54,751 nt of DNA from the IMG/VR virus record IMGVR_UViG_2579779067_000001; one strand, written 5' to 3'. Each line of letters begins with the position of its first letter. The first letter of the stretch is position 1. Below the pieces are notes generated by a model. It did no database searches and was not told where the DNA came from. It saw only the letters and a list, made by a program, of their open reading frames with translations. The position numbers and the translations under genes are program-made. This DNA comes from a virus. Lineage: Duplodnaviria; Heunggongvirae; Uroviricota; Caudoviricetes. Positions 10,637 to 44,049 of this stretch are shown piece after piece.

Positions 10637-10959
10637 CGACGTTAACTCAATGCCAGCAGCAGGTGCTGGATATGCTGATTTCTTATCAGAAAGAACGTGG
10701 CTTCCCGCCAACCAATCAGGAGGTGGCAACCATGCTGGGATACCGTTCAGTGAATGCAGCGGTAGAACATCTTCGCGCACTGGAGAAAAAAGGCGTCATC
10801 ACGATAAAGCGTGGCGTGGCCCTGGGCATCACGCTTCATACCGCGGTGAAGGACGACGACAGCGAGGCGGTCGGGATTATCCGCTCACTGCTTGTCGGTG
10901 AGGAAAACGCCAGGCTGCGTGCAGCCCACTGGTTACATGAGAGGGGCCTGAAAGTATGA
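10633..10959 (+). CDS. LexA N-terminal DNA-binding-domain protein (no peptidase domain)
   Basis: 108 aa; QQQVLDMLISYQKERGFPPTNQEVATMLGYRSVNAAVEHLRALEKKGVI parallels LexA [50 protein letters not shown]. Confidence 0.7.
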   Translation: MTTLTQCQQQVLDMLISYQKERGFPPTNQEVATMLGYRSVNAAVEHLRALEKKGVITIKRGVALGITLHTAVKDDDSEAVGIIRSLLVGEENARLRAAHWLHERGLKV

Positions 10960-11345
10960 AGCTGATCCTGCCTTTCCCGCCCAGCGTGAACACGTACTGG
11001 CGACACCCCAACAAAGGGGCGTTTGCAGGTAAGAGCCTGATAAGCGCGGCGGGGCGCAAATTCCAGAGCGCGGCGTGTGCAGCAATAGTTGAGCAGTTAC
11101 GTCGTCTGCCAAAACCAACGTCGGCACCTGCTTCAGTGGAGATCGTGTTGTTTCCTCCGGATAACCGGATCCGCGATCTGGACAACTATAACAAGGCGCT
11201 GTTTGACGCCCTGACCCACGCGGGTGTGTGGGAAGACGACAGTCAGGTGAAAAGAATGCTGGTGGAGTGGGGACCGGTTATCCCGGAAGGGAAGGTCGAG
11301 ATCACTATCAGTAAGTACGAGAAAACGGCGGGTGCAGCCGCCTGA
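10956..11345 (+). CDS. rusA: Holliday junction resolvase RusA
   Basis: 129 aa; typical RusA N-terminus MKLILPFPPSVNTYW and size. Confidence 0.85.
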   Translation: MKLILPFPPSVNTYWRHPNKGAFAGKSLISAAGRKFQSAACAAIVEQLRRLPKPTSAPASVEIVLFPPDNRIRDLDNYNKALFDALTHAGVWEDDSQVKRMLVEWGPVIPEGKVEITISKYEKTAGAAA

Positions 11346-11364: not shown

Positions 11365-12162
11365 ATGAATAATCTGATGGTCATTGATGGTATTGAAGTT
11401 CGTCGTGATGCTTATGGTCGTTACAGCCTGAACGATCTGCACAGGGCTGCCGGTTCTCTGGATAAGCATAAGCCTGCATTCTGGCTCCGCAATGAGCAAA
11501 CTGAACGTTTAATAAGCGAGTTGCAGATTTGCAACTCGGTCAATATAGAGCCAGTTAACGTTATTCGTGGCGGAAATAACCAGGGGACGTATGTCTGCAA
11601 AGAACTGGTGTATGCCTATGCAATGTGGATCAGCCCGTCATTCCATCTGAAGGTGATCCGTACTTTCGACATGGTAACCAGCGCACCTGAAAAATTATCC
11701 GGACAGGCTGCTGACAAGATGCAGGCTGGCGTGATTCTGCTGGACTTTATGCGCCGGGAATTAAACCTGTCTAACTCATCAGTGCTTGGTGCCTGTCAGA
11801 AACTCCAGGAGGCTGTTGGCTTACCGAATCTGGCACCGCGCTATGCCATTGATGCTCCTGCTGACGCGCCTGATGGCTCAAGTCGCCCCACGCTGTCGCT
11901 GAGTGCACTGCTGAAACAGTATGGTATCCGCCTGACGGCTAATCAGGCATATCACCAGATGGTGAAGCTGGGGATCGTCGAGCAGCGCGAACGATACAGC
12001 CGTACCGCGATTAACAACATCAAAAAATTCTGGTCGCTGACAGCGAAAGGCTGCATGTTCGGCAAGAACATCACCAGTCCCGCAAATCCGCGCGAGACGC
12101 AGCCGCATTTCTTCGAATCCCGATTCCCTGAGCTGTTAAAGCTGCTCGATACCGTTCATTGA
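11365..12162 (+). CDS. KilA-N domain protein (antirepressor-like)
   Basis: 265 aa; N-terminal KilA-N pattern (MVIDGIEVRRDAYGRYSLNDL). Confidence 0.65.
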   Translation: MNNLMVIDGIEVRRDAYGRYSLNDLHRAAGSLDKHKPAFWLRNEQTERLISELQICNSVNIEPVNVIRGGNNQGTYVCKELVYAYAMWISPSFHLKVIRTFDMVTSAPEKLSGQAADKMQAGVILLDFMRRELNLSNSSVLGACQKLQEAVGLPNLAPRYAIDAPADAPDGSSRPTLSLSALLKQYGIRLTANQAYHQMVKLGIVEQRERYSRTAINNIKKFWSLTAKGCMFGKNITSPANPRETQPHFFESRFPELLKLLDTVH

Positions 12163-12163
12163 G

Positions 12164-13159
12164 GTGACCGTGAGAGCACTACTGACTTCTGAAATTGCCC
12201 CGCGTATGGGGATCGTATTGTTCAGGCCAGGTTCAGAGCTGATGCCCCTGTTTATGCAGGGGCGTGTCCTGCTGGAGCCTGAGCCGGAACGTTATTCATC
12301 TTTCGCCAGTGGTGCCGTTCCGGCGGCATCACAACCGCTGGTGGATGATCCTGCCGTTCGGGCCGTGTTCCGCAATGAGGCAGTGATCCGTCGTGCTGGT
12401 GGCGTGGAATGTCTTGAAAGCTGGTTACTTCGTGAAAAGGGCTGTCAGTGGCCTCATTCCGACTGGCACAGCGAGAACATTACCACAATGCGACACGCTC
12501 CGGGCGCAATCCGTCTGTGCTGGCACTGCGATAACCAGCTGCGCGATCAGTTCACGGAACGGCTGGAATCAATGGCAACGGATAACTGTGCCCGCTGGGT
12601 GTTGTCTGTTGTGCGTCGGGATCTCGGTTTTGATGACAGTCACGTTGTGACAATGCCGGAACTGTGCTGGTGGCTGATTCGTAATGACCTGGCGGATGCC
12701 TTACCGGAAAGTGCAGCCCGTAAGGCACTGAGATTACCGAAGCCTGTTGTGCCGTCTGTCACCCGGGAAAGTGACCTTGTGCCTTCGGTTCCTGCCACCA
12801 GCATCATCCAGGATAAGGCGAAAAAGATGCTGGCGCTGAAAGTGGATCCGGAGTCGCCGGAGTCTTTTATGTTACGCCCCAAACGTCGCCGCTGGGTTAA
12901 TGAAAAGTACACGCGCTGGGTTAAGACGCAGCCGTGCGCATGTTGTGGAAAGCCTGCTGATGATGCCCACCACCTGATAGGTCACGGTCAGGGTGGAATG
13001 GGTACAAAAGCGCATGACCTTTTTGTGTTGCCTTTGTGCAGAAAGCATCACGACGAGCTGCATGCGGATACCGTGGTATTTGAAGAGAAGTATGGCTCCC
13101 AGTTGGAGCTGATATTTCGTTTTATTGATCGTGCGCTGGCAATTGGCGTGCTGGCCTGA
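12164..13159 (+). CDS. prophage protein with C-terminal Cys/His zinc-binding nuclease-like domain (DUF968/YbcO-like)
   Basis: 331 aa; GTG start; C-terminal CACCGKPADDAHHL...CRKHHDELH motif; nin-region position before Q. Confidence 0.5.
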   Translation: MTVRALLTSEIAPRMGIVLFRPGSELMPLFMQGRVLLEPEPERYSSFASGAVPAASQPLVDDPAVRAVFRNEAVIRRAGGVECLESWLLREKGCQWPHSDWHSENITTMRHAPGAIRLCWHCDNQLRDQFTERLESMATDNCARWVLSVVRRDLGFDDSHVVTMPELCWWLIRNDLADALPESAARKALRLPKPVVPSVTRESDLVPSVPATSIIQDKAKKMLALKVDPESPESFMLRPKRRRWVNEKYTRWVKTQPCACCGKPADDAHHLIGHGQGGMGTKAHDLFVLPLCRKHHDELHADTVVFEEKYGSQLELIFRFIDRALAIGVLA

Positions 13160-13173: not shown

Positions 13174-13524
13174 TTGATGCGTGATATGTATGAAGTATTG
13201 GACCGCTGGGGAGCATGGGCTGCAGCAGAAAATAGTGGTGTGGACTGGCAGCCGATAGCGGCTGGTTTCAAGGGACTTTTACCACACGGTAAAAAGTCAC
13301 GTCTCCAGTGTGATGATGATGAAGGCATCATGATAGATAGTTGTGTGGCTAGGTTGCGTAAATATAAGCCGGAAGAGTATGAGCTGATAATTGCTCACTT
13401 TGTTATCGGTATCTCATTACGCACTATTGCGAAGAAGAGAAAATGCTCTGATGGGACTATAAGAAAAAAGTTGCAAGCTGCATTGGGATTTATTGATGCA
13501 GTTATATATATAATACATGGGTAA
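13174..13524 (+). CDS. antitermination protein Q (QuuD-like small Q)
   Basis: 116 aa; strong resemblance to DLP12 QuuD (LERWGAWAA...IAAGFKGL...RLQCDDD); position just before lysis module. Confidence 0.75.
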   Translation: MMRDMYEVLDRWGAWAAAENSGVDWQPIAAGFKGLLPHGKKSRLQCDDDEGIMIDSCVARLRKYKPEEYELIIAHFVIGISLRTIAKKRKCSDGTIRKKLQAALGFIDAVIYIIHG

Positions 13525-13531: not shown

Positions 13532-13550
13532 GACGGCCATATTGGCCGTC
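13532..13550. terminator. bidirectional hairpin between convergent Q and moron genes
   Basis: perfect inverted repeat GACGGCCA-TAT-TGGCCGTC in AT-rich context. Confidence 0.5.
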
Positions 13551-14736
13551 AGCTAAATAAATATGTAATAGCATAAGGCGTAAGTAAAAAGTAGAATCTA
13601 AATGTAAGATATAAGCCACATAAAACTATAATTCCTAATGAGGCAAAAACAACTTTCTGAACAAGCAATCTTGTGGTTAAACTATCAAATGTATCCTTTA
13701 TATCTTCGTAAATAGCCTTGAAGTTATATTCTGCTTGTTGTTTTTTATGATTTAACTCATCATTTATTGCTGTTAAAGTTTGCCATTGATTAAATAGAAC
13801 AAATAGAATCATAATAGTGAAGAACAATGCACCCAACACTACAGCTGTGTTTATTAATGCTTGACTATCCCAACCATTAGCCTGCTTCATTTGAGTCGCA
13901 ACGATAATTGTTGCGACGGGGATACCTAATATCTGATTTTGTATGTCACTGAATACTTTATGTATTTTCCCCATCTCTTCTATTTTGGCTACTCGTAACT
14001 GATCCAGTATTTTCTCGTAAGAAAAACCAGAAACGAATACTTTGTATCCTTTTTGATAACTTTCATAAAGTTGTCCTAAATCCCTTAACATGAAGGAAAA
14101 AGAGGTTTCTTTAGTTTTAGATTCACATGATGATTTTATACTACTTGCTAAAATAGTAAGTTTTTGATCTTTATGCGTATCTTCTGCAAAGTTTGCGATC
14201 AAATTATGAATCAGATCTCCATTAACATTCATAAGATCATCGCTAGAATAATTTACTGGAATTTTTAGTACGTTGGATTCGACGAATACCAATTCAAAAT
14301 TTGTTTCATCTAAATAAGCAGAACAATCTTTGAATAAAGTAATTAAGCTCAAAACATCTCTGTACTTGGATATAATAGCAGGCGACTTTTTATCCCTGTT
14401 GTGATAATTAAGTTCGATTATAAAGAAGTTACTGGCTTCCTTTATCCTATTTTTAGGATTTTTTAAATACTCATTAAAAGAGAAATGTAGCTGCCCCAAT
14501 CGTAATTTGGGGGGGGTTATATGTAAGGTTATAGTTTGGCCTAACTCAATGTTGCCAGATTCAAGGGTGATGCCAAAATCATGGGGATTCTCTGTGATAT
14601 CGTTGATGATGTCACAGAGCTCCTCGTTTGAAAGAATGAGTGATGCTTCAGATAGGGTACCTGCAAATGTAGCGGCCTTGTAAATAGTCACTAAGTCTTT
14701 GAAGGTTCTCTGATTGTTACTGCTCATCCTCTTCAC
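13549..14736 (-). CDS. membrane protein of unknown function (soluble N-terminal domain + 2-3 C-terminal TM helices)
   Basis: 395-aa ORF; AT-rich; hydrophobic segments ALINTAVVLGALFFTIMILFVLF and VVFASLGIIVLCGLYLTFRFYFLL; 20-nt overlap with upstream gene. Confidence 0.7.
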   Translation of the reverse strand: MKRMSSNNQRTFKDLVTIYKAATFAGTLSEASLILSNEELCDIINDITENPHDFGITLESGNIELGQTITLHITPPKLRLGQLHFSFNEYLKNPKNRIKEASNFFIIELNYHNRDKKSPAIISKYRDVLSLITLFKDCSAYLDETNFELVFVESNVLKIPVNYSSDDLMNVNGDLIHNLIANFAEDTHKDQKLTILASSIKSSCESKTKETSFSFMLRDLGQLYESYQKGYKVFVSGFSYEKILDQLRVAKIEEMGKIHKVFSDIQNQILGIPVATIIVATQMKQANGWDSQALINTAVVLGALFFTIMILFVLFNQWQTLTAINDELNHKKQQAEYNFKAIYEDIKDTFDSLTTRLLVQKVVFASLGIIVLCGLYLTFRFYFLLTPYAITYLFS

Positions 14737-15751
14737 CTAATTCTGATAAGATCTCTGATCTTAGCGTATCCGGAATCTCGGTAAGTATCAATTTATCGTT
14801 TTCTGAATCATAAAGAACGCTGCCATCATGCAAGGCCGCACGCTCGAATTTCAGAGACCAATGTTTGGACTTTCCTTTGAAACTAACAAGCCCACGTATA
14901 ACGTTGCCATCAGGCACGAACCCATCAGAGAACTCCAGATCGTCATTGGTTAACTTTTCAACTAACAACTCAGGAGCAGTTGGCCATATCTCGTTTGCAA
15001 AAATTTGAGTGTCGAAAGTTTCACCAGAACGATTTAAATTTTTTAATTTTTCATGAGCCTTATTTAGGAACTCTTCACGTGCCTCTGGTTCAAAACCTCT
15101 TTCAGTAGCAAATTCTAAAAGTGCATTCCGTAATTTTGTTGTTTCTTGTTTGGCAATTAGAATATCGTTGCAACCTAAAAACTTTTTGAAATAACCTGCT
15201 ACTGAATTTTGCCCCTTTAGAAAGCTAATATATCTCTCTTTGCCATTCTGGCGCCCAGTTAAGTCAATTCGTCCCGCTACTCGAAGTTTAGCAATGTCTA
15301 GATATTCACTTTCTTGAATTTCAAAATCGTGGACTGAAGAGCCAACTGCTGATGTTAGGATTGCAACCATCAAATAATGATTTCCATTTACCTCATTATG
15401 GGCAATTATTACATAACCACCAGTAGACATTGATTCATCATCGGCTCTGGCTTTTAAATGATTGATCATTCGGATACTAGTATCATAAAAACTATGTGTT
15501 TTATTTACGAAATAATCATCAACGATATTACCCATAGGGTAACTATCGCGGTCATCTTCAAATTTCCCATATCCTTTACCTGCTCTCCCAGAGTACCTTT
15601 CAGTAAGTGCGTTAGAGAGGTCTTTTGATGCTTGCTGAACAGGTTTTTCTGAAGGACAAGGAATAATGGTGGCTAACCCCTGTTGTTCCTTGTTCATAAT
15701 GTGAACAATAAACTTATGAGTGATATTAGTGGGGGTCGCTGATGCAGTCAT
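14717..15751 (-). CDS. YejK/NdpA-family nucleoid-associated protein homolog
   Basis: 344 aa; by-eye alignment to E. coli YejK (GGYVIIAHNEVNGNHYLMVAILTS vs [30 protein letters not shown]...ERYISFLKG vs RIDLTE...TRYLTFLKG); AGGA SD before ATG. Confidence 0.75.
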   Translation of the reverse strand: MTASATPTNITHKFIVHIMNKEQQGLATIIPCPSEKPVQQASKDLSNALTERYSGRAGKGYGKFEDDRDSYPMGNIVDDYFVNKTHSFYDTSIRMINHLKARADDESMSTGGYVIIAHNEVNGNHYLMVAILTSAVGSSVHDFEIQESEYLDIAKLRVAGRIDLTGRQNGKERYISFLKGQNSVAGYFKKFLGCNDILIAKQETTKLRNALLEFATERGFEPEAREEFLNKAHEKLKNLNRSGETFDTQIFANEIWPTAPELLVEKLTNDDLEFSDGFVPDGNVIRGLVSFKGKSKHWSLKFERAALHDGSVLYDSENDKLILTEIPDTLRSEILSELGEEDEQ

Positions 15752-16041: not shown

Positions 16042-16368
16042 ATGCCTCATAACCCAAATACTTGGCTGGAGTTGGTCCAGAGCTGGTGGCGTGGAGACAC
16101 ACCGCTGGGCGCAGTGATTATGTCGATTGTTATGGCTGGTTTGCGCATTGCCTATTTTGGCGGTGGTGGTGGCTGGAAGCGAAAAACACTCGAAATTCTA
16201 CTCTGTGGCGCTCTGACGCTGACTTTTGCATCCGCTCTTGAGTATGTCGGATGGCCTAAATCGCTTTCTGTTGCCATTGGTGGTGGGGTGGGGCTGATCG
16301 GTGTCGATGCTATTCGTGGGGCTGCAATGAGAGTAATCGGTAATAAGTTTGGTGGCTCTAAGGAGTAA
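16042..16368 (+). CDS. holin (lambda S-like)
   Basis: 108 aa; hydrophobic helices and charged C-terminus; precedes endolysin. Confidence 0.8.
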   Translation: MPHNPNTWLELVQSWWRGDTPLGAVIMSIVMAGLRIAYFGGGGGWKRKTLEILLCGALTLTFASALEYVGWPKSLSVAIGGGVGLIGVDAIRGAAMRVIGNKFGGSKE

Positions 16369-16371: not shown

Positions 16372-16848
16372 ATGCAGGTACTAAATTCCCAGCGTAAAGC
16401 TTTCCTCGATATGGTGGCATGGTCAGAAGGAACGGATAACGGGCGACAACCGACACGTAACCACGGTTATGATGTGATTGTTGGTGGCGAACTGTTCACT
16501 GATTACTCCGATCACCCTCGCAAACTTGTCACGCTAAACCCAAAACTCAAATCAACAGCCGCCGGACGTTACCAGCTTCTTTCCCGTTGGTGGGATGCCT
16601 ACCGTAAGCAGCTTGGCCTGAAAGACTTCTCTCCAAAAAGCCAGGACGCTGTGGCATTGCAGCAGATTAAGGAGCGTGGCGCTTTACCGATGATTGATCG
16701 CGGTGATATTCGTCAGGCTATCGACCGTTGCAGCAATATCTGGGCTTCACTGCCGGGCGCTGGTTATGGCCAGTTCGAGCATAAGGCTGACAGCCTGATT
16801 GCAAAATTCAAAGAGGCTGGCGGAACGGTCAGAGAGATTAAGGTATGA
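16372..16848 (+). CDS. endolysin (lambda R-like lytic transglycosylase)
   Basis: 158 aa; near-identical in pattern to lambda R ([20 protein letters not shown]...). Confidence 0.95.
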
Positions 16849-17282
16849 GCAGAGTCACCGCGATTATCTCTGCTCTGATTATCTGCATCATCGTCTGCCT
16901 GTCATGGGCTGTTAATCATTACCGTGATAACGCCATCGCCTACAAAGAGCAGCGCGATAAAGCCACATCCATCATCGCTGACATGCAGAAGCGTCAACGT
17001 GATGTAGCAGAACTCGACGCCAGATATACAAAGGAGCTTGCTGATGCTAACGCGACTATCGAAAGTCTCCGTGCTGATGTTTCTGCTGGGCGTAAGCGCC
17101 TGCAAGTCGCCGCCACCTGTGCAAAGTCAACGACCGGAGCCAGCAGCATGGGCGATGGAGAAAGCCCAGGACTTACAGCAGATGCTGAACTCAATTATTA
17201 CCGTCTCCGAAGTGGAATCGACAGGATAACCGCGCAGGTTAACTACCTGCAGGAATACATCAGGACGCAATGCCTTCGATGA
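16845..17282 (+). CDS. i-spanin Rz
   Basis: 145 aa; N-terminal TM helix, coiled-coil; lambda Rz-like. Confidence 0.85.
17038..17229 (+). CDS. o-spanin Rz1 (embedded in Rz, +1 frame)
   Basis: lipobox LLGVSAC followed by Pro-rich stretch; embedded in Rz as in lambda. Confidence 0.6.
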
Positions 17283-17781: not shown

Positions 17782-17896
17782 CCTCCTACGACTGTTTTTA
17801 TTGCCATCATAAAAGCCATTCCTTGCAGAGTGGCTTTGATAATGGATATCCCAACAAGCGGATAAGACAATAAATATACCCACCAGGGGATAAACA

Positions 17897-18142
17897 ATGT
17901 CTAAAATCACGGTTACACCTGCATAGCAGATCCGCTTAAACCTGCTGGCGAAACTGAACTATGACACCGCCGCTGCAGCAGACGCGATTAAGTTTGTTGG
18001 TGAGGATCCGTTGAAGTATCAAATCTTTGTGAACCAGTTAAGCTGGGTAACATCTGAAAGCGGGCTGGTAGCCAGAACGACGAAAGCTATCAAAGAGTCG
18101 GAAGACACACTACTGTGGTTTGAAGCTGAATCTGGTTCATAA
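17897..18142 (+). pseudogene. hypothetical gene interrupted by in-frame TAG at codon 10 (17924-17926)
   Basis: ATG with AGGGGA SD; MSKITVTPA*QIRLNLLAKLNYDTAAAADAIKFVGEDPLKYQIFVNQLSWV...; frame open to TAA at 18140. Confidence 0.45.
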
Positions 18143-18190: not shown

Positions 18191-18412
18191 ATGCCAAAGA
18201 ATGTCATAGCTATTTTACCGGGTGACGCGTTTGATCATGTTGTTGTCCAGGACGACCTGGAGATTGTTACCTTCAGGGGTGACAAGGGCGGCGTGCTTAC
18301 TATGCCTATCGAGGAGTACGAACTAGACGGGATAAGTTATAACGTCGCACGTTGTGACGGTATGGTCACTGACGAAAAAGTTGAGAAGGCTATCAGACAC
18401 TTCACCAAGTAA
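18191..18412 (+). CDS. hypothetical small protein
   Basis: internal ATG of track ORF 18143..18412 with AAGGGG SD; followed by terminator. Confidence 0.4.
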   Translation: MPKNVIAILPGDAFDHVVVQDDLEIVTFRGDKGGVLTMPIEEYELDGISYNVARCDGMVTDEKVEKAIRHFTK

Positions 18413-18430
18413 TAATCAGCTTCCGAACCA

Positions 18431-18453
18431 AGCCTCGCAATAGCGAGGCTTTT
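18431..18453 (+). terminator. rho-independent terminator
   Basis: GCCTCGC-AATA-GCGAGGC hairpin followed by TTTTT. Confidence 0.65.
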
Positions 18454-18466
18454 TAACGACAGAGGT

Positions 18467-18735: not shown

Positions 18736-19137
18736 ATGAAAATAGATCACGAGTATTTGAAAGGTCTTTTGGAAGCTTTCGAGGCGTCTGAAGAGCCGCA
18801 TACTGATATAAAGCAGCTGCAGCTGGCTGGGTATGACTACAGCACCGATGAATTTTTATTCCATATGCGTTTATTGGCTGATCGTCAACTAATTGCTAGA
18901 ACAGACGGCAAGTATGGGTTTGGTTTCTCTGAGGCTGCTGATGGAGGATCATGGTTCGTTATACCGTTACGATTAACTTCAAGCGGTCATGACTTCCTTG
19001 AAGCTCTCAGGAATAAAGAGGTTTGGAATTCTCTCAAGACCGGCTTTAAAGATGCAAGCATTGGAACATTAGTTGACGTTTCAAGGCGTTTGCTGGATGG
19101 TTATATTCAGAAAAAAATTGACGACTTAATTGGCTAA
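18736..19137 (+). CDS. hypothetical phage protein (DUF2513-like, tentative)
   Basis: 133-aa ORF; own terminator downstream. Confidence 0.45.
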   Translation: MKIDHEYLKGLLEAFEASEEPHTDIKQLQLAGYDYSTDEFLFHMRLLADRQLIARTDGKYGFGFSEAADGGSWFVIPLRLTSSGHDFLEALRNKEVWNSLKTGFKDASIGTLVDVSRRLLDGYIQKKIDDLIG

Positions 19138-19155
19138 TATTTTATATAACCATCA

Positions 19156-19179
19156 GCCCCGCAATCGCGGGGCTTTTTT
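19156..19179 (+). terminator. rho-independent terminator
   Basis: GCCCCGC-AAT-CGCGGGGC hairpin followed by TTTTTT. Confidence 0.65.
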
Positions 19180-19271
19180 ATTGCCATTATGATGGCAGAT
19201 ACATTGCTATGGCGTAACAGGATTTCAACTATGAACCCAACAGAAGCAGCTACATCACCGAAGGACGGATA

Positions 19272-19622
19272 ATGCCACCACGCACACCAAAAGCCTGCAG
19301 TGTTCGCGGGTGCCGCCATACCACCACTGACCCGTCAGGTTATTGCGAAAGCCACAAAAGCGAAGGCTGGAAGCAATACAAGCCAGGACAATCCCGTCAT
19401 CAGCGCGGCTACGGTTCGAAGTGGGATGTTATCCGCGCGCGTGTGCTGAAGCGTGACAAAGGTTTATGTCAGTTATGTCTGCGTGCCGGTGTGGTGCGTG
19501 AGGCGAAAACCGTTGACCACATCATCCCTAAAGCGCATGGCGGCACTGATGCCGACAGCAATCTGCAGAGCCTGTGCTGGCCGTGTCATAAGGCGAAGAC
19601 GGCCCGTGAACGGTTGAAGTAA
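19272..19622 (+). CDS. HNH endonuclease (terminase-associated)
   Basis: 116 aa; Cys/His motif CQLC...VDHIIP...H...CWPCH; immediately upstream of terminase genes. Confidence 0.8.
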   Translation: MPPRTPKACSVRGCRHTTTDPSGYCESHKSEGWKQYKPGQSRHQRGYGSKWDVIRARVLKRDKGLCQLCLRAGVVREAKTVDHIIPKAHGGTDADSNLQSLCWPCHKAKTARERLK

Positions 19623-19738
19623 GAACCAGTTCCCACTGCCAGAGGGGAGGGGCGGGTCAAATCCCTGCGGCCTGACGTCTTCCGGACTGCCCGCCCCATC
19701 GTTTTTTTATACCCGCGAAAAATGAAATTTAACCAGGA

Positions 19739-20242
19739 GTGCCGCATATGGCTGGAACGGCGGGGCGTTCCGGGCGTCGCCCCAAGCCAACGGCGCGCAA
19801 GGCGCTGGCCGGAAACCCCGGCAAGCGAGCCCTGAATAAAGATGAACCTGTTTTTACGCCCATCAAAGGTGTTGAGCCACCGGAGTGGTTCGCTGAAGAA
19901 GATCTCCCTCTCGCCACGATCATGTGGCAACTGACAACCAAAGAACTCTGCGGTCAGGGCCTGCTGTGCGTGACTGACCTCGCGGTGCTTGAGCGGTGGT
20001 GTGTGGCCTATGAGTTCTGGCGACGTGCCGTGAAAAATATTGCCAGACAGGGCAACACCATCACCGGCGCAATGGGCGGTATGGTCAAAAATCCTGAGCT
20101 GACCGCCAAAAAAGAACAGGAGTCCGAGATGAGCAGTACGGGGGCAATGCTCGGACTCGACCCCAGCAGCCGCCAGCGTCTGATTGGCCTGGCGGGGCAG
20201 AAGAAAGCCACTAACCCGTTTCTGAAAATTATCGAATCATGA
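19739..20242 (+). CDS. terminase small subunit (P27 family)
   Basis: 167 aa; position and N-terminal basic region ([22 protein letters not shown]). Confidence 0.75.
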
Positions 20243-21972
20243 GCCGGAAATCTTACCCCAACGTAAATGCTGCCAATCAGTATGCCCGGGATGTCGTTCG
20301 CGGAAAGATTGTGGCCTGCCAGTTTGTGATTCAGGCCTGCCAGCGCCATCTTGATGACCTGATGGCGGAAAAAAGTAAGTCGTTTCGTTACCGCTTCGAC
20401 AAGGACCTGGCTGAACGGGCCGCCAAATTTATTCAGCTGTTGCCGCATACCAAGGGTGAGTGGGCATTCAAACGGATGCCCATCACGCTGGAGCCGTGGC
20501 AGCTCTTTGTGATCTGCTGTGCGTTTGGCTGGGTCAATAAAGGTACCCGGCTGCGCCGCTTCCGGGAGGTGTATACCGAAATCCCCCGTAAGAACGGCAA
20601 ATCGGCAATCTCTGCCGGTGTCGCCCTGTATTGTTTTGCCTGTGATAACGAGTTTGGCGCGGAAGTGTATTCCGGTGCCACGACAGAGAAACAGGCGTGG
20701 GAAGTCTTTCGCCCGGCGCGACTGATGTGTAAACGCACACCCATGCTGACGGAAGCGTTCGGGATTGAGGTTAACGCCTCAAACATGAACCGTCCGGAGG
20801 ATGGCGCGCGGTTTGAGCCGCTGATCGGTAACCCCGGTGATGGTTCATCACCCCACTGTGCGGTGGTGGATGAATATCACGAGCATGCCACCGATGCACT
20901 TTACACCACGATGCTTACCGGGATGGGGGCGCGACGTCAGCCACTGATGTGGGCCATCACCACCGCCGGGTACAACATTGAGGGGCCGTGCTACGACAAG
21001 CGGCGGGAAGTTCTCGAGATGCTCAACGGTTCGGTACCCAACGATGAACTGTTCGGGATCATCTATACCGTTGACGAAGGCGATGACTGGACCGACCCGC
21101 AGGTGCTGGAAAAAGCCAATCCAAATATTGGCGTGTCGGTTTATCGCGAATTTTTGTTAAGTCAGCAGCAGCGTGCGAAAAATAACGCCCGTCTGGCAAA
21201 CGTCTTTAAAACAAAACACCTCAATATCTGGGTGTCGGCGCGTTCGGCGTATTTCAACCTGGTGAGCTGGCAGAGCTGCGAGGATAAATCACTGACCCTT
21301 GAGCAGTTCGAGGGGCAGCCGTGCATTCTGGCCTTTGACCTGGCGCGTAAGCTGGATATGAACAGCATGGCGCGACTTTATACCCGAGAGATTGACGGTA
21401 AAACGCATTACTACAGTGTGGCCCCGCGTTTCTGGGTACCGTATGACACGGTGTACAGCGTCGAGAAAAATGAAGATCGACGGACAGCCGAACGCTTTCA
21501 GAAATGGGTGGAAATGGGCGTTCTGACCGTTACCGATGGTGCGGAAGTGGATTATCGCTACATCCTCGAGGAGGCCAAAGCGGCGAACAAAATCAGCCCG
21601 GTCAGTGAGTCACCCATCGACCCCTTCGGGGCGACCGGGTTGTCACATGACCTTGCTGATGAAGACCTGAATCCCGTCACTATCGTCCAGAACTTCACCA
21701 ATATGTCCGACCCGATGAAAGAGCTGGAAGCGGCGATTGAATCGGGACGTTTTCATCATGACGGCAATCCCATCATGACCTGGTGTATCGGCAACGTGGT
21801 CGGCAAAACCATTCCGGGTAACGATGATGTGGTGAAGCCCGTCAAAGAGCAGGCGGAAAACAAAATCGATGGTGCAGTTGCGCTGATTATGGCGGTTGGC
21901 AGAGCCATGCTGTACGAGAAAGAAGACACGCTGTCTGACCACATTGAGTCCTATGGGATCCGCTCGCTTTAA
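20239..21972 (+). CDS. terminase large subunit
   Basis: 577 aa; ATPase and nuclease regions; overlaps small subunit stop. Confidence 0.9.
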
Positions 21973-21983
21973 CTGAGGTAATT

Positions 21984-22166
21984 ATGATCATGCTGATTCT
22001 CGCGCCTCTGGTGGGCGTGCTGGGGGCGCTTTTGCTGGCGTATGGTGCCTGGCTGATTTATCCCCCAGCGGGGTTTGTTGTTGCCGGGGCGTTGTGCCTG
22101 TTCTGGTCGTGGCTGGTGGCGCGATATCTCGACCGTACACAGTCGTCTGCCGGCGGAGGTAAATAG
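21984..22166 (+). CDS. small membrane protein
   Basis: 60-aa ORF with two hydrophobic helices between terminase and portal. Confidence 0.4.
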
Positions 22167-23407
22167 TGTTCTTTTCGGGATTATTTCAACGAAAAAGTGA
22201 CGCACCGGTGACCACGCCAGCAGAGCTGGCGGATGCTATCGGGTTGTCCTACGACACCTATACCGGAAAGCAGATCAGCAGCCAGCGGGCCATGCGACTG
22301 ACGGCGGTTTTTTCCTGTGTCAGGGTGCTGGCGGAGTCGGTCGGGATGTTGCCCTGCAACCTGTATCACCTGAACGGCAGCCTGAAGCAGAGAGCCACTG
22401 GCGAACGTCTGCATAAGCTGATCTCCACGCATCCCAATGGCTATATGACGCCGCAGGAGTTCTGGGAGCTGGTGGTCACCTGTCTGTGCCTGCGGGGAAA
22501 CTTTTACGCCTACAAAGTGAAAGCATTTGGCGAAGTGGCTGAACTGCTGCCCGTCGATCCCGGCTGTGTGGTACCGAAGCTTAACAGTAGCTGGGAGCCG
22601 GTCTATCAGGTCACATTCCCGGATGGCTCCACGGATGTACTGAGCCAGGAGGATATCTGGCATGTGCGCACGCTGACGCTGGACGGACTGGTGGGGCTGA
22701 ATCCCATCGCCTATGCCCGCGAGGCAATATCGCTGGCGGCAGCGACCGAAGAGCACGGGGCCAGACTGTTCAGCAATGGCGCGGTGACGTCGGGTGTGTT
22801 GCGTACAGAGCAGACGCTGTCAGATCAGGCTTATGAGCGCCTGAAGAAAGATTTTGAGGAGCGTCACACCGGGCTTGGCAATGCTCACCGCCCGATGATC
22901 CTTGAGATGGGGCTGGACTGGAAGTCGATGGCGCTGAACGCCGAGGACAGCCAGTTCCTGGAAACCCGCAGGTTTCAGCTTGAAGAAATCTGTCGTCTGT
23001 TCCGGGTGCCGTTGCACATGGTGCAGAACACCGATCGCGCCACCTTCAACAATATCGAAGAGCTGGGGCTGGGATTTATCAACTATTCACTGGTGCCGTA
23101 TCTGACCCGCATCGAACAGCGGATCAACACCGGACTGGTACGAAAAAGTAAGCAGGGCGTTTATTACGCCAAATTTAACGCCGGGGCGTTACTGCGCGGG
23201 GATATGAAGTCCCGTTTTGAAGCCTACGCCACCGGGATCAACTGGGGAATTTACTCTCCCAATGACTGCCGCGACCTGGAAGATATGAATCCGCGTCCCG
23301 GTGGTGATGTCTATCTCACACCGATGAACATGACCACGAAACCCTCCGATGGCAGTAAAGCCGGTAAGCAGAAGGATAACGCCAATGCAGACGAAACAAC
23401 GTCTTGA
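22166..23407 (+). CDS. portal protein (HK97 family)
   Basis: 413 aa; position after terminase. Confidence 0.85.
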   Translation: MFFSGLFQRKSDAPVTTPAELADAIGLSYDTYTGKQISSQRAMRLTAVFSCVRVLAESVGMLPCNLYHLNGSLKQRATGERLHKLISTHPNGYMTPQEFWELVVTCLCLRGNFYAYKVKAFGEVAELLPVDPGCVVPKLNSSWEPVYQVTFPDGSTDVLSQEDIWHVRTLTLDGLVGLNPIAYAREAISLAAATEEHGARLFSNGAVTSGVLRTEQTLSDQAYERLKKDFEERHTGLGNAHRPMILEMGLDWKSMALNAEDSQFLETRRFQLEEICRLFRVPLHMVQNTDRATFNNIEELGLGFINYSLVPYLTRIEQRINTGLVRKSKQGVYYAKFNAGALLRGDMKSRFEAYATGINWGIYSPNDCRDLEDMNPRPGGDVYLTPMNMTTKPSDGSKAGKQKDNANADETTS

Positions 23408-24035
23408 TGTACCGCTGAGTCTGAAATCTGTCAGTGACTCCGGTGAGTTTGAAGGGTATGGCTCTGTCTTTGGTGTAAAGGACAGCCACGATGATGTGGT
23501 GATGTCCGGGGCATTTGCTGCTTCCCTGCGGGCGTGGAGTGACAGAAAAGCGTTACCTGCACTGCTCTGGCAGCACCGTATGGATGAGCCCATCGGTGTT
23601 TACACCGAAATGAAGGAAGACGATGTCGGGCTTTACGTCAGGGGGCGGTTGCTCATTGATGATGATCCCCTGGCAAAACGCGCACATGCACACATGAAGG
23701 CCGGTTCGCTAACCGGCCTTTCTATTGGGTACGTCCTGAAGGACTGGGAATACGACCGGACGAAAGAAGCCTTTCTGCTGAAAGAAATCGACCTCTGGGA
23801 AGTCAGTCTGGTGACGTTTCCGTCTAACGACGAGGCGCGGATCAGCGACGTCAAGAACGCGCTGGCCCGCGGGGAAATCCCCGAACAGAAAAAAATCGAA
23901 AGAGTCCTGCGTGATGTCGGACTCTCCCGTACCCAGGCCAAAGCATTCATGGCCGGGGGCTATGGCGCACTGTCCCTGCGCGACGCTGAGGATGTGGGCT
24001 CTGCACTGAATGCACTGAAAAATCTGAACTTCTAA
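23385..24035 (+). CDS. prohead protease (HK97 family)
   Basis: internal ATG 23385; position between portal and capsid. Confidence 0.75.
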   Translation: MQTKQRLDVPLSLKSVSDSGEFEGYGSVFGVKDSHDDVVMSGAFAASLRAWSDRKALPALLWQHRMDEPIGVYTEMKEDDVGLYVRGRLLIDDDPLAKRAHAHMKAGSLTGLSIGYVLKDWEYDRTKEAFLLKEIDLWEVSLVTFPSNDEARISDVKNALARGEIPEQKKIERVLRDVGLSRTQAKAFMAGGYGALSLRDAEDVGSALNALKNLNF

Positions 24036-24049
24036 TCAGGAGAAATACG

Positions 24050-25255
24050 ATGGCGGTTGATATTAAAGATGTCGAACAGGTCGCGCAGGAGCTGCAGCAG
24101 AAGTTTGACGACTTCAAAGCAAAGAACGACAAGCGCGTGGATGCGATTGAGCAGGAAAAAGGCAAGCTTGCCGGGCAGGTGGAAACCCTGAACGGGAAAC
24201 TCAGCGAGCTGGAAAATCTCAAAAGCGACCTTGAAAAAGAGCTGCTTGAGCTGAAACGTCCGGCAGGTGGTGCGCAAAATAAACTGGCCACCGAGCATAA
24301 AGAAGCGTTTGTGGGCTTCCTGCGTAAAGGCCGTGAAGACGGTCTGCGCGATCTGGAGCGTAAGGCATTGCAGGTGGGCACCGATGAAGACGGTGGCTAC
24401 GCCGTGCCGGAAGCGCTGGATCGCAACATTCTCAACCTGCTGAAAGATGAAGTGGTGATGCGTCAGGAAGCCACGGTGATCACCGTTGGCGGTTCCGACT
24501 ACAAAAAACTGGTGAATCTGGGCGGCACGGCTTCCGGATGGGTGGGGGAAACGGATACGCGATCCCAGACTGCCACCTCCAGACTGGAGCTGATTGAACC
24601 TCTCATGGGGGAAATCTACGGCAACCCGCAGGCTACCCAGAAAATGCTGGACGATGCCTTCTTCAACGTGGAAGCATGGATCAACAGCGAGCTGGCAACC
24701 GAATTTGCCGAACAGGAAGAAATTGCCTTTACCACCGGCGATGGTACCAAGAAGCCGAAAGGGTTCCTGGCGTATGAATCCACGGATGAAACCGATAAGG
24801 TCCGGGCGTTCGGCAAACTTCAGCATATTGTATCCGGCGACGCGACTGCGGTGACCGCTGATGCCATTATCAAACTGATTTACACGCTGCGAAAGGCACA
24901 CCGCACCGGCGCGAAGTTCATGATGAACAACAACAGCCTGTTTGCCATCCGTTTGCTGAAAGACACCGAGGGTAACTATCTGTGGCGTCCGGGGCTGGAA
25001 CTGGGGCAGCCGTCCTCTCTGGCGGGTTACGGTATCGCTGAAAACGAACAGATGCCGGATATCGCCGCTGATGCGAAAGCCATTGCATTTGGTAACTTCA
25101 AACGGGGTTACACCATCGTTGACCGTATCGGCACCCGCATTCTGCGTGACCCGTACACCAATAAACCGTTTGTCGGTTTTTATACCACCAAGCGCACCGG
25201 CGGGATGCTGGTCGATTCGCAGGCCATCAAACTGCTGAAGATTGCAGCGGCGTAA
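24050..25255 (+). CDS. major capsid protein (HK97 fold)
   Basis: 401 aa; N-terminal coiled-coil delta domain then capsid core; follows protease. Confidence 0.9.
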   Translation: MAVDIKDVEQVAQELQQKFDDFKAKNDKRVDAIEQEKGKLAGQVETLNGKLSELENLKSDLEKELLELKRPAGGAQNKLATEHKEAFVGFLRKGREDGLRDLERKALQVGTDEDGGYAVPEALDRNILNLLKDEVVMRQEATVITVGGSDYKKLVNLGGTASGWVGETDTRSQTATSRLELIEPLMGEIYGNPQATQKMLDDAFFNVEAWINSELATEFAEQEEIAFTTGDGTKKPKGFLAYESTDETDKVRAFGKLQHIVSGDATAVTADAIIKLIYTLRKAHRTGAKFMMNNNSLFAIRLLKDTEGNYLWRPGLELGQPSSLAGYGIAENEQMPDIAADAKAIAFGNFKRGYTIVDRIGTRILRDPYTNKPFVGFYTTKRTGGMLVDSQAIKLLKIAAA

Positions 25256-25304
25256 TCATTCAGGGGCGCGGAACCGCGCCCCCTGTTCTGACGGATGAAG
25301 AATC

Positions 25305-25505
25305 ATGATCCTGAAACAAGATCTGAAATGGTCACCGGACGGTATGCGTGTTGAGGTCATTCGGGCCGGTGAGTATGACGACGGGGCGCTGCCTGCCCGG
25401 GTGCAGGAGATTGCACTTCAGGCCGGGTTAGCAGAGCGCGGAACCAGTGCAAAAAGCAGTAAAGCGGCAAAAGAGAAAAAAGCCACGACCAGTAAAGAGG
25501 GCTGA
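25305..25505 (+). CDS. hypothetical small protein
   Basis: 66-aa ORF after capsid gene. Confidence 0.35.
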   Translation: MILKQDLKWSPDGMRVEVIRAGEYDDGALPARVQEIALQAGLAERGTSAKSSKAAKEKKATTSKEG

Positions 25506-25507
25506 GT

Positions 25508-25831
25508 ATGCTTCTGACAATGGAAGAGATTAAAGCCCAACTCCGGCTGGATGAGGATTTCGATACTGATGACCGTCATCTGCAACTGCTGGCCTGTGCG
25601 GCGCAAAAGCGGACGGAAACGTATCTGAACCGGAAGCTCTATGCACCGGATGAAAACATTCCGGACAGCGATCCGGACGGACTACACCTGCCGGATGATA
25701 TTCGTCTGGGGATGCTGATGCTTATCAGCCATTTTTACGAAAACCGCTCGTCGGTTACGGAAGTGGAGAAACTCGACATGCCGCAGAGTTTTGGCTGGCT
25801 TGTCAGCCCGTACAGGTACTTTCCGCAATGA
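25508..25831 (+). CDS. head-tail connector (gp6-like)
   Basis: 107 aa; typical N-terminus MLLTMEEIKAQLRLDEDFDTDD. Confidence 0.7.
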   Translation: MLLTMEEIKAQLRLDEDFDTDDRHLQLLACAAQKRTETYLNRKLYAPDENIPDSDPDGLHLPDDIRLGMLMLISHFYENRSSVTEVEKLDMPQSFGWLVSPYRYFPQ

Positions 25832-26238
25832 AAATTCGTCAGGCGCAGACCAGCGCAACCTACATCCTGCCGGACCCCGGCGAACTGAATAAACGCGTCC
25901 TGATCCGCCAGCGGGTGGATATGCCCGCGGATAACTTTGGCGTGGAGCCTCAATACCCGGTTGCGTTCCGGGCATGGGCGAAGGTTATCCAGACCAGTGC
26001 CACCACCTGGCAGGAAACCGCGCAGACCGGAGACGCCATCACCCATTACATCACCATTCGCTACCGCCGGGGGATCACTGCTGATTATGAGGTGGTCTGT
26101 GGTGACAGTGTGTACCGCGTGAAACGTCAGCGTGATCTGAACGGAGCGCGGCGCTTTCTGCTGCTGGAGTGTACGGAGCTGGGCGAATTTACGCAGAGTC
26201 ACGGAGGCAACAATGGCGACTTCCTTTTTGCACGTTGA
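25828..26238 (+). CDS. head-tail adaptor / head closure protein
   Basis: 136 aa; position and size. Confidence 0.65.
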   Translation: MKIRQAQTSATYILPDPGELNKRVLIRQRVDMPADNFGVEPQYPVAFRAWAKVIQTSATTWQETAQTGDAITHYITIRYRRGITADYEVVCGDSVYRVKRQRDLNGARRFLLLECTELGEFTQSHGGNNGDFLFAR

Positions 26239-26719
26239 TTTTCAGCAGCCCGCGGAGATGCGCTTTAACCGCGCCCGTGTCCGGCGGGCGTTTGTCACGA
26301 TTGGTCAGCGTCATATGCGTGATGCCCGTCGGCTGGTGATGCGCCGTGCGCGGTCGGCACCGGGTGAAAACCCCGGTTATCAGACCGGACGCCTGGCTCG
26401 TTCGATTGGTTACATGGTACCCAGAGCCAGTAAACATCGCCCTGGTTTTATGGCACGTATAGCCCCTAACCAGCGTAATGGAGAGGGAAACCGCCGTATC
26501 ACCGGTGATTTTTATCCGGCTTTTTTGTTCTATGGCGTGAGGCGAGGGGCAAAGCGTCGTCGCAGCCATCATCGTGGTGCATCCGGTGGCAGCGGCTGGC
26601 GACTGGCTCCACGTAATAACTTCATGGTGGAAACTCTTGAAAAGAACCGCAGCTGGACACGCTATTTTCTGGCGCGGGAATTGCGTAAATCACTGAAGCC
26701 GGAGCGACGACACAGATGA
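26213..26719 (+). CDS. tail component (HK97 gp10-like), basic
   Basis: 168-aa Arg-rich ORF; position. Confidence 0.5.
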   Translation: MATSFLHVDFQQPAEMRFNRARVRRAFVTIGQRHMRDARRLVMRRARSAPGENPGYQTGRLARSIGYMVPRASKHRPGFMARIAPNQRNGEGNRRITGDFYPAFLFYGVRRGAKRRRSHHRGASGGSGWRLAPRNNFMVETLEKNRSWTRYFLARELRKSLKPERRHR

Positions 26720-27276
26720 AACTGACGCCTGTTATTGCTGCACTGCGTGCCCGCTGTCCGTATTTTGAAAACCGGGTTGCAGGCGCGGCCCAGTTCAAAA
26801 ATCTGCCGGAGGTCGGAAAGCTGAAACTCCCGGCGGCATATGTTGTACCGGGTGATGATTCTCCGGGAGAAAACAAAAGCCAGACCGACTACTGGCAGGA
26901 GCTGAAAGAGGGTTTCTCCGTGGTTGTCATACTGAGTAACGGGCGTGATGAGCGCGGTCAGTTTGCCTCGTATGATGTGGTGGACGATGTCCGGCAGATG
27001 CTCTTTAAGGCTCTGCTGGGCTGGAACCCGGAGGCGTGCGGTAACCCGATTACCTATGACGGCGGCACGCTGCTGGATCTGAATCGTCATGAGCTGATTT
27101 ATCAGTTCGATTTTTCGGTCATCAGCGAGCTGACTGAAGACGATACCCGCCAGCAGGATGATCTGAACAGTCTGGATGAACTGCAAACGCTGGCGATTGA
27201 TGTTGATTATCTCGAGCCCGGTAACGGGCCTGACGGCGATATCGAACATCACACCGAAATAACCCTTCCTTCCTGA
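26716..27276 (+). CDS. tail terminator / tail completion protein
   Basis: 186 aa; precedes sheath. Confidence 0.5.
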   Translation: MKLTPVIAALRARCPYFENRVAGAAQFKNLPEVGKLKLPAAYVVPGDDSPGENKSQTDYWQELKEGFSVVVILSNGRDERGQFASYDVVDDVRQMLFKALLGWNPEACGNPITYDGGTLLDLNRHELIYQFDFSVISELTEDDTRQQDDLNSLDELQTLAIDVDYLEPGNGPDGDIEHHTEITLPS

Positions 27277-27284
27277 GGATCCTC

Positions 27285-27455
27285 ATGTTTGTCAAACCTG
27301 TTAAAGGGCGGTCAGTTCCTGACCCTGCCCGCGGCGACCTTTTGCCCGCCGAAGGGCGAAATGTTGACGAGAACAACTACTGGCTGCGCCGTGAAGCAGC
27401 GGGTGATATCCGGCGCGTGAATAAAAAGGTGAATACCGATGACGATAAGCTTTAA
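27285..27455 (+). CDS. small conserved Mu-like tail-region protein (about 56 aa)
   Basis: ATG 27285 to TAA 27453-27455; overlaps sheath start; below track cutoff. Confidence 0.4.
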   Translation: MFVKPVKGRSVPDPARGDLLPAEGRNVDENNYWLRREAAGDIRRVNKKVNTDDDKL

Positions 27456-28935
27456 CACCATTCCGTCGAATACGCTGGTTCCGTTGTTTTATGCGGAAAT
27501 GGATAACCAGGCGGCGAATACTGCACAGGACAGCGGAGCATCGCTGCTGATTGGTCATGCCAATAACGGTGCAGAGATTGTTGCCAACAGTCTGGTACTG
27601 ATGCCGTCGGCAGACTATGCACGCCAGATTTGTGGTGCGGGAAGTCAGCTGGCGCGTATGGTCGAGGCTTATCGCCAGACTGACCCGTTTGGCGAGCTGT
27701 ATGTGATTGCCGTTCCTGAATCCACAGGCGCGGCGGCAACGGTTACGCTGACGGTGACCGGGGCGGCAACCGAAACCGGCACGGTGAATGTGTATGTGGG
27801 ACGTACCCGCGTGCAGGCACCGGTGACTAACGGCGATAACGTCACGATGATTGCCAGCAGTATCCAGGATGCCATCAATGCCGTTCCGACCCTGCCGTTT
27901 ACGGCTTCATCTTCGGCAGGCGTGGTCACACTGGCCGCGCGTCATAAGGGGCTTTGCGGGAATGAAATTCCTGTCAGCCTCAATTACTACGGCTTTGGTG
28001 GGGGCGAAGTGCTGCCAGCGGGCGTACAGATTGCCGTGGCGACGGGTACCGCCGGAACGGGTGCTCCGGTTCTCACCGGCGCGGTAGCTGCAATGGCGGA
28101 TGAGCCGTTTGATTATATCGGCCTGCCGTTCAACGACACGGCCTCCGTTAACACGCTGGTGACCGAGATGAACGATACCAGCGGTCGCTGGAGCTATGCG
28201 CGTCAGCTGTATGGTCATGTGTATACGGCAAAGATCGGCACGCTGTCAGAACTGGTGACCGCAGGTGACCAGTTTAACCAGCAGCACATTACCCTGGCGG
28301 GGTACGAAAAAGACACCCAGACGCCTGCCGACGAGTTGGCGGCAAGCCGTACCGCCCGCGCAGCGGTGTTTATCCGCAACGATCCGGCACGTCCCACGCA
28401 GACCGGTGAGCTGGTGGGTATGCTGCCTGCGCCGAAGGGGAAACGGTTCACGATGACCGAACAACAGACCCTGCTGTCTCATGGCGTGGCAACGGCGTAT
28501 GTCGAAAGCGGGGTACTGCGCATTCAGCGTGATGTCACCACGTACAGGAAAAACGCTTACGGGGTTGCGGATAACAGCTACCTCGACAGCGAGACGCTGC
28601 ATACCAGCGCGTATGTACTGCGCAAACTGAAATCCGTCATTACCAGTAAGTACGGGCGTCACAAGCTTGCCAGTGACGGTACCCGCTTTGGTCCCGGTCA
28701 GGCGATTGTCACCCCGGCGGTGATCAAAGGGGAACTGCTGGCAACCTACCGTCAGCTCGAGCGTGCGGGGATCGTGGAAAACTACGAACTGTTCAAGCAG
28801 TACCTGGTTGTGGAGCGTGATGCCAGCGATCCGAACCGCCTGAACACGCTGTTCCCGCCTGACTATGTTAACCAGTTGCGTGTCTTTGCCGTGGTTAACC
28901 AGTTCCGTCTTCAGTATTCAGAGGAGTCTGCATAA
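27439..28935 (+). CDS. tail sheath protein (Mu gpL-like)
   Basis: 498 aa; order sheath-tube-chaperone-tape measure. Confidence 0.85.
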   Translation: MTISFNTIPSNTLVPLFYAEMDNQAANTAQDSGASLLIGHANNGAEIVANSLVLMPSADYARQICGAGSQLARMVEAYRQTDPFGELYVIAVPESTGAAATVTLTVTGAATETGTVNVYVGRTRVQAPVTNGDNVTMIASSIQDAINAVPTLPFTASSSAGVVTLAARHKGLCGNEIPVSLNYYGFGGGEVLPAGVQIAVATGTAGTGAPVLTGAVAAMADEPFDYIGLPFNDTASVNTLVTEMNDTSGRWSYARQLYGHVYTAKIGTLSELVTAGDQFNQQHITLAGYEKDTQTPADELAASRTARAAVFIRNDPARPTQTGELVGMLPAPKGKRFTMTEQQTLLSHGVATAYVESGVLRIQRDVTTYRKNAYGVADNSYLDSETLHTSAYVLRKLKSVITSKYGRHKLASDGTRFGPGQAIVTPAVIKGELLATYRQLERAGIVENYELFKQYLVVERDASDPNRLNTLFPPDYVNQLRVFAVVNQFRLQYSEESA

Positions 28936-29291
28936 TGGCCCGTATCGGGGGAACCTGTTATTTCAAAATTGACGGTCAGCAGCTATCGCTGACCGGTGGC
29001 ATTGAGGTGCCCATGAACAGGACGGTCAATGATGACATCATCGGCCTGGACGGTTCAGTGGACCGCAAGGAAACTCACCGTGCGCCTTATGTCAAAGGGA
29101 CCTTCAAGGTGCCGAAGAATTTTCCGGTGGGCAAAATCACCTCGTCTGATGAGATGACAATCACTGCCGAGCTGGCGAACGGTCAGGTCTATGTACTGTC
29201 GTCTGCCTGGCTGCACGGCGAAGCGAACCATAATGCCGAAGAAGGCACGGTTGATCTTGAGTTCCACGGTGAAGAAGGGGATTACCAGTAA
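28935..29291 (+). CDS. tail tube protein
   Basis: 118 aa after sheath. Confidence 0.8.
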   Translation: MARIGGTCYFKIDGQQLSLTGGIEVPMNRTVNDDIIGLDGSVDRKETHRAPYVKGTFKVPKNFPVGKITSSDEMTITAELANGQVYVLSSAWLHGEANHNAEEGTVDLEFHGEEGDYQ

Positions 29292-29560
29292 TGAAAGAGC
29301 TTGAGTTAAAGAAACCGATTACTGCGCATGGCGAGACACTCTCCGTACTGGAGTTTGATGAGCCCACCGGGAAGGATGTCCGCGAGCTGGGGTATCCCTA
29401 CCAGATGAATCAGGATGAGTCCGTCAGACTTCTGGCGCATGTGGTGTCGAAATACATTGTGCGGCTGGCGAAAGTGCCGCAAAGCTCTGTCGACCAGATG
29501 TCTCCGGCAGACCTGAATGCAGCGGCGTGGCTTGTGGCCGGTTTTTTCCTCCAGGCCTGA
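29291..29560 (+). CDS. tail assembly chaperone (frame 0 product)
   Basis: 89 aa; overlapping -1 frame ORF 29527..29709 with slippery site. Confidence 0.7.
   Translation: MKELELKKPITAHGETLSVLEFDEPTGKDVRELGYPYQMNQDESVRLLAHVVSKYIVRLAKVPQSSVDQMSPADLNAAAWLVAGFFLQA
29542..29548 (+). other. programmed -1 ribosomal frameshift slippery heptamer T_TTT_TTC
   Basis: in-frame GGT TTT TTC at the end of chaperone ORF; -1 frame continues to 29709. Confidence 0.65.
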
Positions 29561-29701
29561 CGGCTGAATACCTCACTGATCGCTTCTTTGACTGCGCCAG
29601 CTACTGGCGCATTAATCCTTTCGAATTGCTGAATATGTCGATCAGTGAAATTCCCTTACTGGTCAGTCAGGCAAACAGGATAGAGCAGGAGAAACGCACA
29701 C

Positions 29702-40345: not shown

Positions 40346-41215
<870 letters not shown>

Positions 41216-44040: not shown

Positions 44041-44049
44041 CGAAAATTA

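Follow-up and report, generated by a model that had tools for sequence, protein, structure and literature searches.

In the window (the whole stretch of 54,751 nucleotides analysed here, IMG/VR record IMGVR_UViG_2579779067_000001), a short frame begins at an ATG, meets an amber codon after nine codons and then stays open in the same frame for another 71. Is this a real gene inactivated by a nonsense mutation, a gene whose stop is read through, a shorter gene that starts past the stop, or an intact gene with an error in its sequence?

An interrupted frame between lysis and packaging genes

The letters read directly as an earlier note on this DNA had described them. A Shine-Dalgarno-like AGGGGA (17885-17890) lies 6 nt 5' of the ATG at 17897-17899, the translation runs MSKITVTPA up to a TAG at 17924-17926, and 71 sense codons follow up to the TAA at 18140-18142. 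The note had also held that the frame is absent from the list of open reading frames for want of a Met past the stop, and there is indeed no in-frame ATG downstream; the mechanical list gives for this frame a single 43-aa ORF from a TTG (18011-18142). At the local base composition, 71 codons in a row without a stop would arise by chance with a probability of about 0.028. The features of the locus, including the family assignment discussed below, are as follows.

17885..17890, + strand: Shine-Dalgarno-like AGGGGA, read directly
17897..18142, + strand: whole DUF2560 (PF10834 / PHROG 571) gene, probable pseudogene allele, 81 codons and stop (Pfam, homologues, PHROG)
17897..17923, + strand: nine codons, MSKITVTPA, still expected to be translated (the family N-terminus MSEITVTPA except for E3K)
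17924..17926, + strand: amber codon TAG, ancestral CAG for Gln10 (homologues, outgroup DNA and 20 copies of the lineage)
17927..18139, + strand: 71 open codons past the TAG, homologous to DUF2560 residues 11-81 (alignment)
18140..18142, + strand: original stop TAA, changed to TAC in two copies (L002 and L033)

A promoter scan for a promoter of the gene's own scored below the shuffle expectation, and the comparison with Rfam for structured RNA at the locus gave no score near the gathering thresholds.

The interrupted gene belongs to the DUF2560 family

The stop-bridged sequence of 81 aa matched the Pfam family DUF2560 (PF10834) with an E value of 1.6e-13 and 51.1 bits (cut-off 25), residues 5-72 being aligned to profile positions 2-69 of 72 with the TAG position inside the match. 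Among the 5.8 billion protein clusters searched, there were 32 homologues. The 26 intact ones, from prophages of Enterobacter, Leclercia, Silvania, Phytobacter, Salmonella and E. coli, have 78-82 aa, mostly 81, and are 69-89% identical to the stop-bridged sequence; they share the N-terminus MSEITVTPAQQIRL, and their consensus N-terminus is MSEITVTPAQQIRLNLL. The homology, in the Pfam match as well as in the full-length homologues, bridges the stop and is the decisive evidence that the interrupted frame is a real gene. The check that the earlier note had suggested, whether homologues span the stop, thus came out positive, and its view that a real small gene is broken by an amber at codon 10 is borne out by the colinearity of the 26 intact proteins from Met1 to the C-terminus.

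The length and colinearity of the known DUF2560 proteins (the 81-aa P0002 and P0040 of Enterobacter prophages, and WP_279796255.1) are shared by the window allele, and so is the start context of the family, MSxITVTPAQQIRL, apart from the TAG at Gln10. The frame of the window allele differs in being interrupted at codon 10, where the homologues have Gln or Glu; in addition, it carries E3K, R50W and L74W at columns which are invariant in the family. An intact homologue was assigned to PHROG 571, and the AlphaFold model of an intact member is a small 4-helix protein (pLDDT 91.9) with helices at residues 8-19, 24-34, 38-50 and 57-79. Most of the domain therefore lies past the TAG, helix 1 of the predicted fold starting at residue 8. 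Pairs of intact DUF2560 genes gave dN/dS values of 0.06-0.18, with a mean of 0.11. DUF2560 is a family of real, constrained proteins.

Searches for the role of the family gave little. The PDB sequence search found no relatives, Foldseek of the model against the PDB gave nothing at or below an E value of 0.001 and generic helical matches only, and the structural matches in BFVD were uncharacterised phage proteins only. PHROG 571 is placed in the category 'unknown function', PADLOC had no match for DUF2560, and in the literature covered the name is mentioned in passing, with nothing informative on function. In the relatives examined, the gene occupies a slot 3' of the lysis cassette and 5' of the HNH and terminase genes, and the same arrangement of lysis, DUF2560 and packaging genes occurs in the window, L015/L016, L025, L026 and L027. 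In two relatives (L023, 251-487; L029, 1-112), a gene of the Acb2/Tad1-hairpin family (anti-CBASS/anti-Thoeris sponges) lies directly upstream of an intact DUF2560 gene. This suggests that the gap between lysis and terminase genes is an anti-defence or cargo hotspot; the Acb2/Tad1 neighbours mark the slot as a cargo region and say nothing definite about the role of DUF2560 itself.

The prophage and its cargo

The element is a prophage of about 41 kb at thrW, where the last 28 bases of the tRNA-Thr gene are repeated exactly (att copies at 1417-1444 and 42620-42647). Its main landmarks and the adjoining chromosomal genes are listed below; the gene under study comes after the lysis cassette and before the terminase genes, downstream of the Q antiterminator, which agrees with its earlier description as a late-region gene.

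1-1254: proA
1369-1444: tRNA-Thr(CGU), thrW
1459-2622: integrase
10956-11345: RusA
11365-12162: KilA-N
12164-13159: DUF968
13174-13524: Q antiterminator
16042-16368: holin
16372-16848: endolysin
16845-17282: Rz
18736-19137: DUF2513
19272-19622: HNH
within the ORF 19739-20242: P27-type small terminase
20239-21972: large terminase

With the Shigella/Escherichia phages SfV, SfII, SfI, SfIV and vB_EcoM-689R6 the element shares its packaging, head and tail genes (19271-31000) at about 97% identity, and the block from packaging to tail aligns to the record of vB_EcoM-689R6 without a break at 97.6% identity. In contrast, megablast of the segment 17500-18500, which holds the DUF2560 gene, against phage records gave no match, and the best tblastn matches to DUF2560 in phages were from Klebsiella phages at 58-60% identity. 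The element thus looks like an otherwise intact SfV/SfII-like temperate myovirus prophage, a member of a known group, and the DUF2560 gene is in a variable cargo region of this mosaic phage family.

Several other regions of the window also carry accessory genes. Between the Q antiterminator and the holin, a two-gene cassette is found on the minus strand (13549-15751); its 395-aa protein had no Pfam or PADLOC match, its second gene encodes a 344-aa NA37 (YejK/NdpA-like nucleoid-associated) protein, and a different 340-aa gene takes its slot in L012/L013. The cassette looks like a moron or possible defence cargo. At the tail-fibre end (38728-41170, minus strand) there are cargo genes for a membrane acyltransferase of the Acyl_transf_3 family (38728-39795) and for a protein with a GIY-YIG nuclease domain (40346-41170), and by analogy with serotype-converting Shigella phages the former may be O-antigen acetylase-like. 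Directly past the right att copy lies a second integrase (42812-43978), and P4-type genes occur in 42620-48134, namely those for the Psu polarity suppression protein (46239-46811) and Ogr/Delta (46885-47385), with an unassigned ORF at 47382-48134; this region has the appearance of a P4-like satellite, inserted at thrW in tandem with the prophage. Moreover, two similar GC-rich hairpins stand in the late region, one 3' of orf73 (18430-18454, AAGCCTCGC-AATA-GCGAGGCTT followed by TTT) and one 3' of DUF2513 (19155-19184, AGCCCCGC-AATC-GCGGGGCT followed by TTTTT). The consensus terminator scan reported the hairpin at 19155-19184 only, and both look like moron-style terminators within the late operon.

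Origin and spread of the amber codon

At position 10, Gln is found in 25 of the 26 intact homologues and Glu in the remaining one. A scan of genome contigs with the family alignment gave two loci, one of them irrelevant, and the intact DNA relatives were fetched individually; codon 10 is CAG in all six outgroups and in the nearest intact gene. Taking the Gln of the homologues and the CAG of the relatives together, the TAG goes back to a single C>T transition from CAG. The stop falls at codon 10 of 81, where every intact relative has a sense codon. We consider it very probable that the DUF2560 gene was inactivated by this one change of the Gln codon from CAG to TAG and that the allele is an inherited, fixed pseudogene.

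The TAG is present in all 20 copies examined (the window and 19 others), which represent six haplotypes and two mosaic phage backgrounds and form one lineage of at least 98.4% identity. The 19 other copies are from six complete E. coli chromosomes (of wastewater, soil, water, sediment and chicken sources), eight draft assemblies, four IMG/VR contigs and one human-gut metagenome contig. The pattern scans of the collections left the first base of codon 10 free, and T was the sole base found; no sense allele of at least 90% identity occurs among the 5.8 billion protein clusters. A sequencing or assembly error in an intact gene, as another source of the TAG, has next to no probability, as the same base stands in 20 independent records. 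These differ in laboratory, type of sample and sequencing project, and six of them are RefSeq assemblies at the level of complete genomes.

The second background is that of L012/L013, in which the flanking holin, HNH and terminase genes diverge by about 7.5% and a different gene lies upstream of the holin. The occurrence of the same TAG allele in two diverged backgrounds indicates that it has been moved by phage recombination. In four other E. coli prophages (H7-H10), the homology to the window stops at 17894 (in H10 at 17865, so that 17865-17894 spans these end points), and no DUF2560 gene is annotated in H7 downstream of that end. A mosaic recombination boundary thus coincides with the start of the gene, since the prophage homology ends just 5' of the ATG.

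Further changes are seen in one or two copies. In L002 (the 2c3 copy), the Shine-Dalgarno sequence AGGGGA is mutated to AAGGGA, and in L002 and L033 the TAA at 18140 has become TAC, by which the frame continues into the next gene, which is in the same frame. Two other candidates for further decay were rejected: P0036 is short because a contig end cuts it, and P0037 comes from a prophage remnant with a deletion endpoint inside the DUF2560 gene. In L017 (1-3201), a prophage remnant, all that lay to the left of the DUF2560 remnant is deleted, the deletion ending inside the gene, and bacterial sugar-transferase genes abut it.

Selection on the amber lineage

Three private substitutions of the amber lineage, all radical (E3K, R50W and L74W), fall at columns invariant in the 26 homologues, versus 0-2 such changes in comparably diverged homologues, and three further private substitutions fall at near-invariant columns. 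The lineage-specific substitutions within 17927-18139 are N19K, R50W, E70D, A71T and L74W, to which the window adds D36E. When the differences from the nearest intact gene were polarised with six outgroups, almost all of them fell on the amber branch. The dN/dS between the amber lineage and the nearest intact gene, at 0.31, is roughly threefold the family mean of 0.11. The binomial P for this value is 0.007 against an omega of 0.11 and 0.019 against an omega of 1, as would be seen on a branch under constraint up to the mutation and evolving neutrally from then on.

The polymorphism within the lineage past the TAG consists of N21Y, D36E, T52I and the stop-loss TAA>TAC, versus one synonymous change (P 0.016-0.05 under constraint at the family level). 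In addition, the density of segregating sites is 2.0% in the DUF2560 gene versus 0.78% in seven neighbouring genes of the same low-diversity block, a 2.6-fold excess (Poisson P 0.046). These tests of relaxed constraint use small counts (about 21 branch substitutions and six polymorphisms), and the branch dN/dS is still below 1. From the sequence comparisons, the amber allele looks to be under relaxed constraint, with neutral-looking polymorphism, and we take this as supportive, not conclusive. According to the branch estimates, about 10 neutral substitutions are expected since the mutation, each with a chance of about 5% of making a new stop. The frame past the TAG is thus presumably still open because little time has passed since the mutation, and its openness is not evidence of function.

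Readthrough, reinitiation and the annotated proteins

Apart from loss of the gene, the TAG could be leaky: near-cognate tRNA-Gln might read it at a low rate, or a host with a supE-like suppressor might read it efficiently. A little full-length DUF2560 protein with Gln10 would then still be made, throttled by the stop. When supE or near-cognate tRNAs read UAG in E. coli, they insert Gln, which is the ancestral residue 10, and a trace of near-native protein is thus plausible; UAG followed by C is a relatively weak stop in the literature on termination contexts in E. coli. All 20 copies keep the downstream frame open and nearly all keep the Shine-Dalgarno sequence and ATG, the allele has survived its transfer by recombination into two phage backgrounds, and the branch dN/dS is below 1. 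However, at such low divergence a 71-codon open frame would be expected to last by chance, and one copy has the weakened Shine-Dalgarno sequence. The stop is confined to one shallow lineage of at least 98.4% identity, while a sense codon takes this position in each of the 26 diverged homologues. The changes past the TAG are mostly nonsynonymous, at near-invariant residues (D36E and T52I), with a stop-loss besides, and R50W, L74W and E3K are radical changes at invariant positions; purifying selection past the stop, as programmed readthrough would leave it, was not seen within the lineage, in a small sample. Nor does the window carry a suppressor tRNA, as ARAGORN found in its 54.7 kb only the tRNA-Thr(CGU). 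Taken together, a leaky TAG is unlikely. That the amber is in fact kept as an expression throttle, with trace Gln readthrough or full suppression in an occasional suppressor host, is clearly less likely still; if it were true, the throttle would give a small, possibly dosage-sensitive amount of DUF2560 protein and would account for the survival of the start signals and of the 71-codon frame in every copy and in both mosaic backgrounds.

It is also conceivable that an N-truncated protein is made by reinitiation, of 70 aa from ATC 17930, of 51 aa from ATT 17987 or of 43 aa from TTG 18011. For the same locus, on DNA with 98.4-99.6% identity across the gene, RefSeq holds the following proteins, which PGAP labels as DUF2560 family proteins.

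WP_226234448.1: 70 aa, 17930-18142, ATC start; RefSeq, DUF2560 family protein
WP_435366616.1: 51 aa, 17987-18142, ATT start; RefSeq, DUF2560 family protein
WP_489816917.1: 141-aa fusion with the next gene, at 3488-3913 of L002, TAA 18140 changed to TAC; RefSeq

Besides, in the window haplotype a C>G at 18004, which turns a near-invariant Asp into Glu (D36E), creates a GAGGA 4 nt 5' of TTG 18011. Against reinitiation, ATC and ATT are very poor starts and neither has an upstream Shine-Dalgarno sequence, there is no AUG, GUG or UUG near the TAG for a coupled restart, and the GAGGA is present in only 2 of the 20 copies. The D36E change is found in the window haplotype, in L031 and in the protein P0034 (18 contigs), and the gain of GAGGA is probably coincidental. 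Judged from the model, helix 1 (in part or in full), or both helices 1 and 2, would moreover be missing from the compact 4-helix domain in any such product. The same DNA has been given three different N-termini, and this disagreement means that the starts were picked by homology and not from a signal. Reinitiation past the stop is accordingly very improbable. The RefSeq records already carry the family name and none of them is flagged as a pseudogene; they hide the amber by means of non-canonical starts past the TAG, whereas the ATG at 17897 with its premature stop is not represented. The annotations of 70, 51 and 141 aa are therefore likely artefacts which mask the pseudogene. Annotated truncated proteins from the amber allele occur on 75, 71, 18 and 7 contigs. 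A single nonsense allele appears to have given rise to hundreds of artefactual DUF2560 proteins in the databases (70, 51 and 141 aa), which should be flagged as pseudogenes.

Proposed consequence and meaning of the mutation

With inactivation by the nonsense mutation as the preferred reading, ribosomes would start at ATG 17897 and make the 9-residue MSKITVTPA, which RF1 would release at the UAG; the DUF2560 protein would not be made, because the first predicted helix only begins at residue 8. The phage would tolerate the loss, since DUF2560 is presumably cargo that it can spare, placed in the variable stretch which separates the lysis from the packaging genes. The next gene (18191-18412) is served by a Shine-Dalgarno sequence of its own (AAGGGGATAAAAATG, gene start 18191). 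In lambda, Q makes RNA polymerase resistant to terminators. If late transcription here is likewise driven by the Q antiterminator (13174-13524), the nonsense codon should have no polar effect on the expression of terminase and head genes, because Q antitermination suppresses termination.

The lesion is a textbook amber mutation and nothing new in kind, and the locus is already in RefSeq. The classical amber mutants of temperate phages are laboratory CAG>TAG alleles that are suppressible by supE. The lesion in the window is the same, a Gln codon changed to UAG, for which a glutamine-inserting suppressor would restore the wild-type residue. Unlike the laboratory ambers, the window allele is natural, lies in a presumably non-essential accessory gene and is fixed in a wild prophage lineage, with no suppressor evident. 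The value of the finding lies in the correction of the annotation and in a naturally occurring null allele for a conserved phage gene; this allele could serve as a ready-made control in tests of DUF2560 function, for example against a CAG revertant. For the biology of the phage, it means that a widespread lineage of E. coli prophages can do without DUF2560, a conserved and constrained cargo gene, a conclusion of little biological weight.
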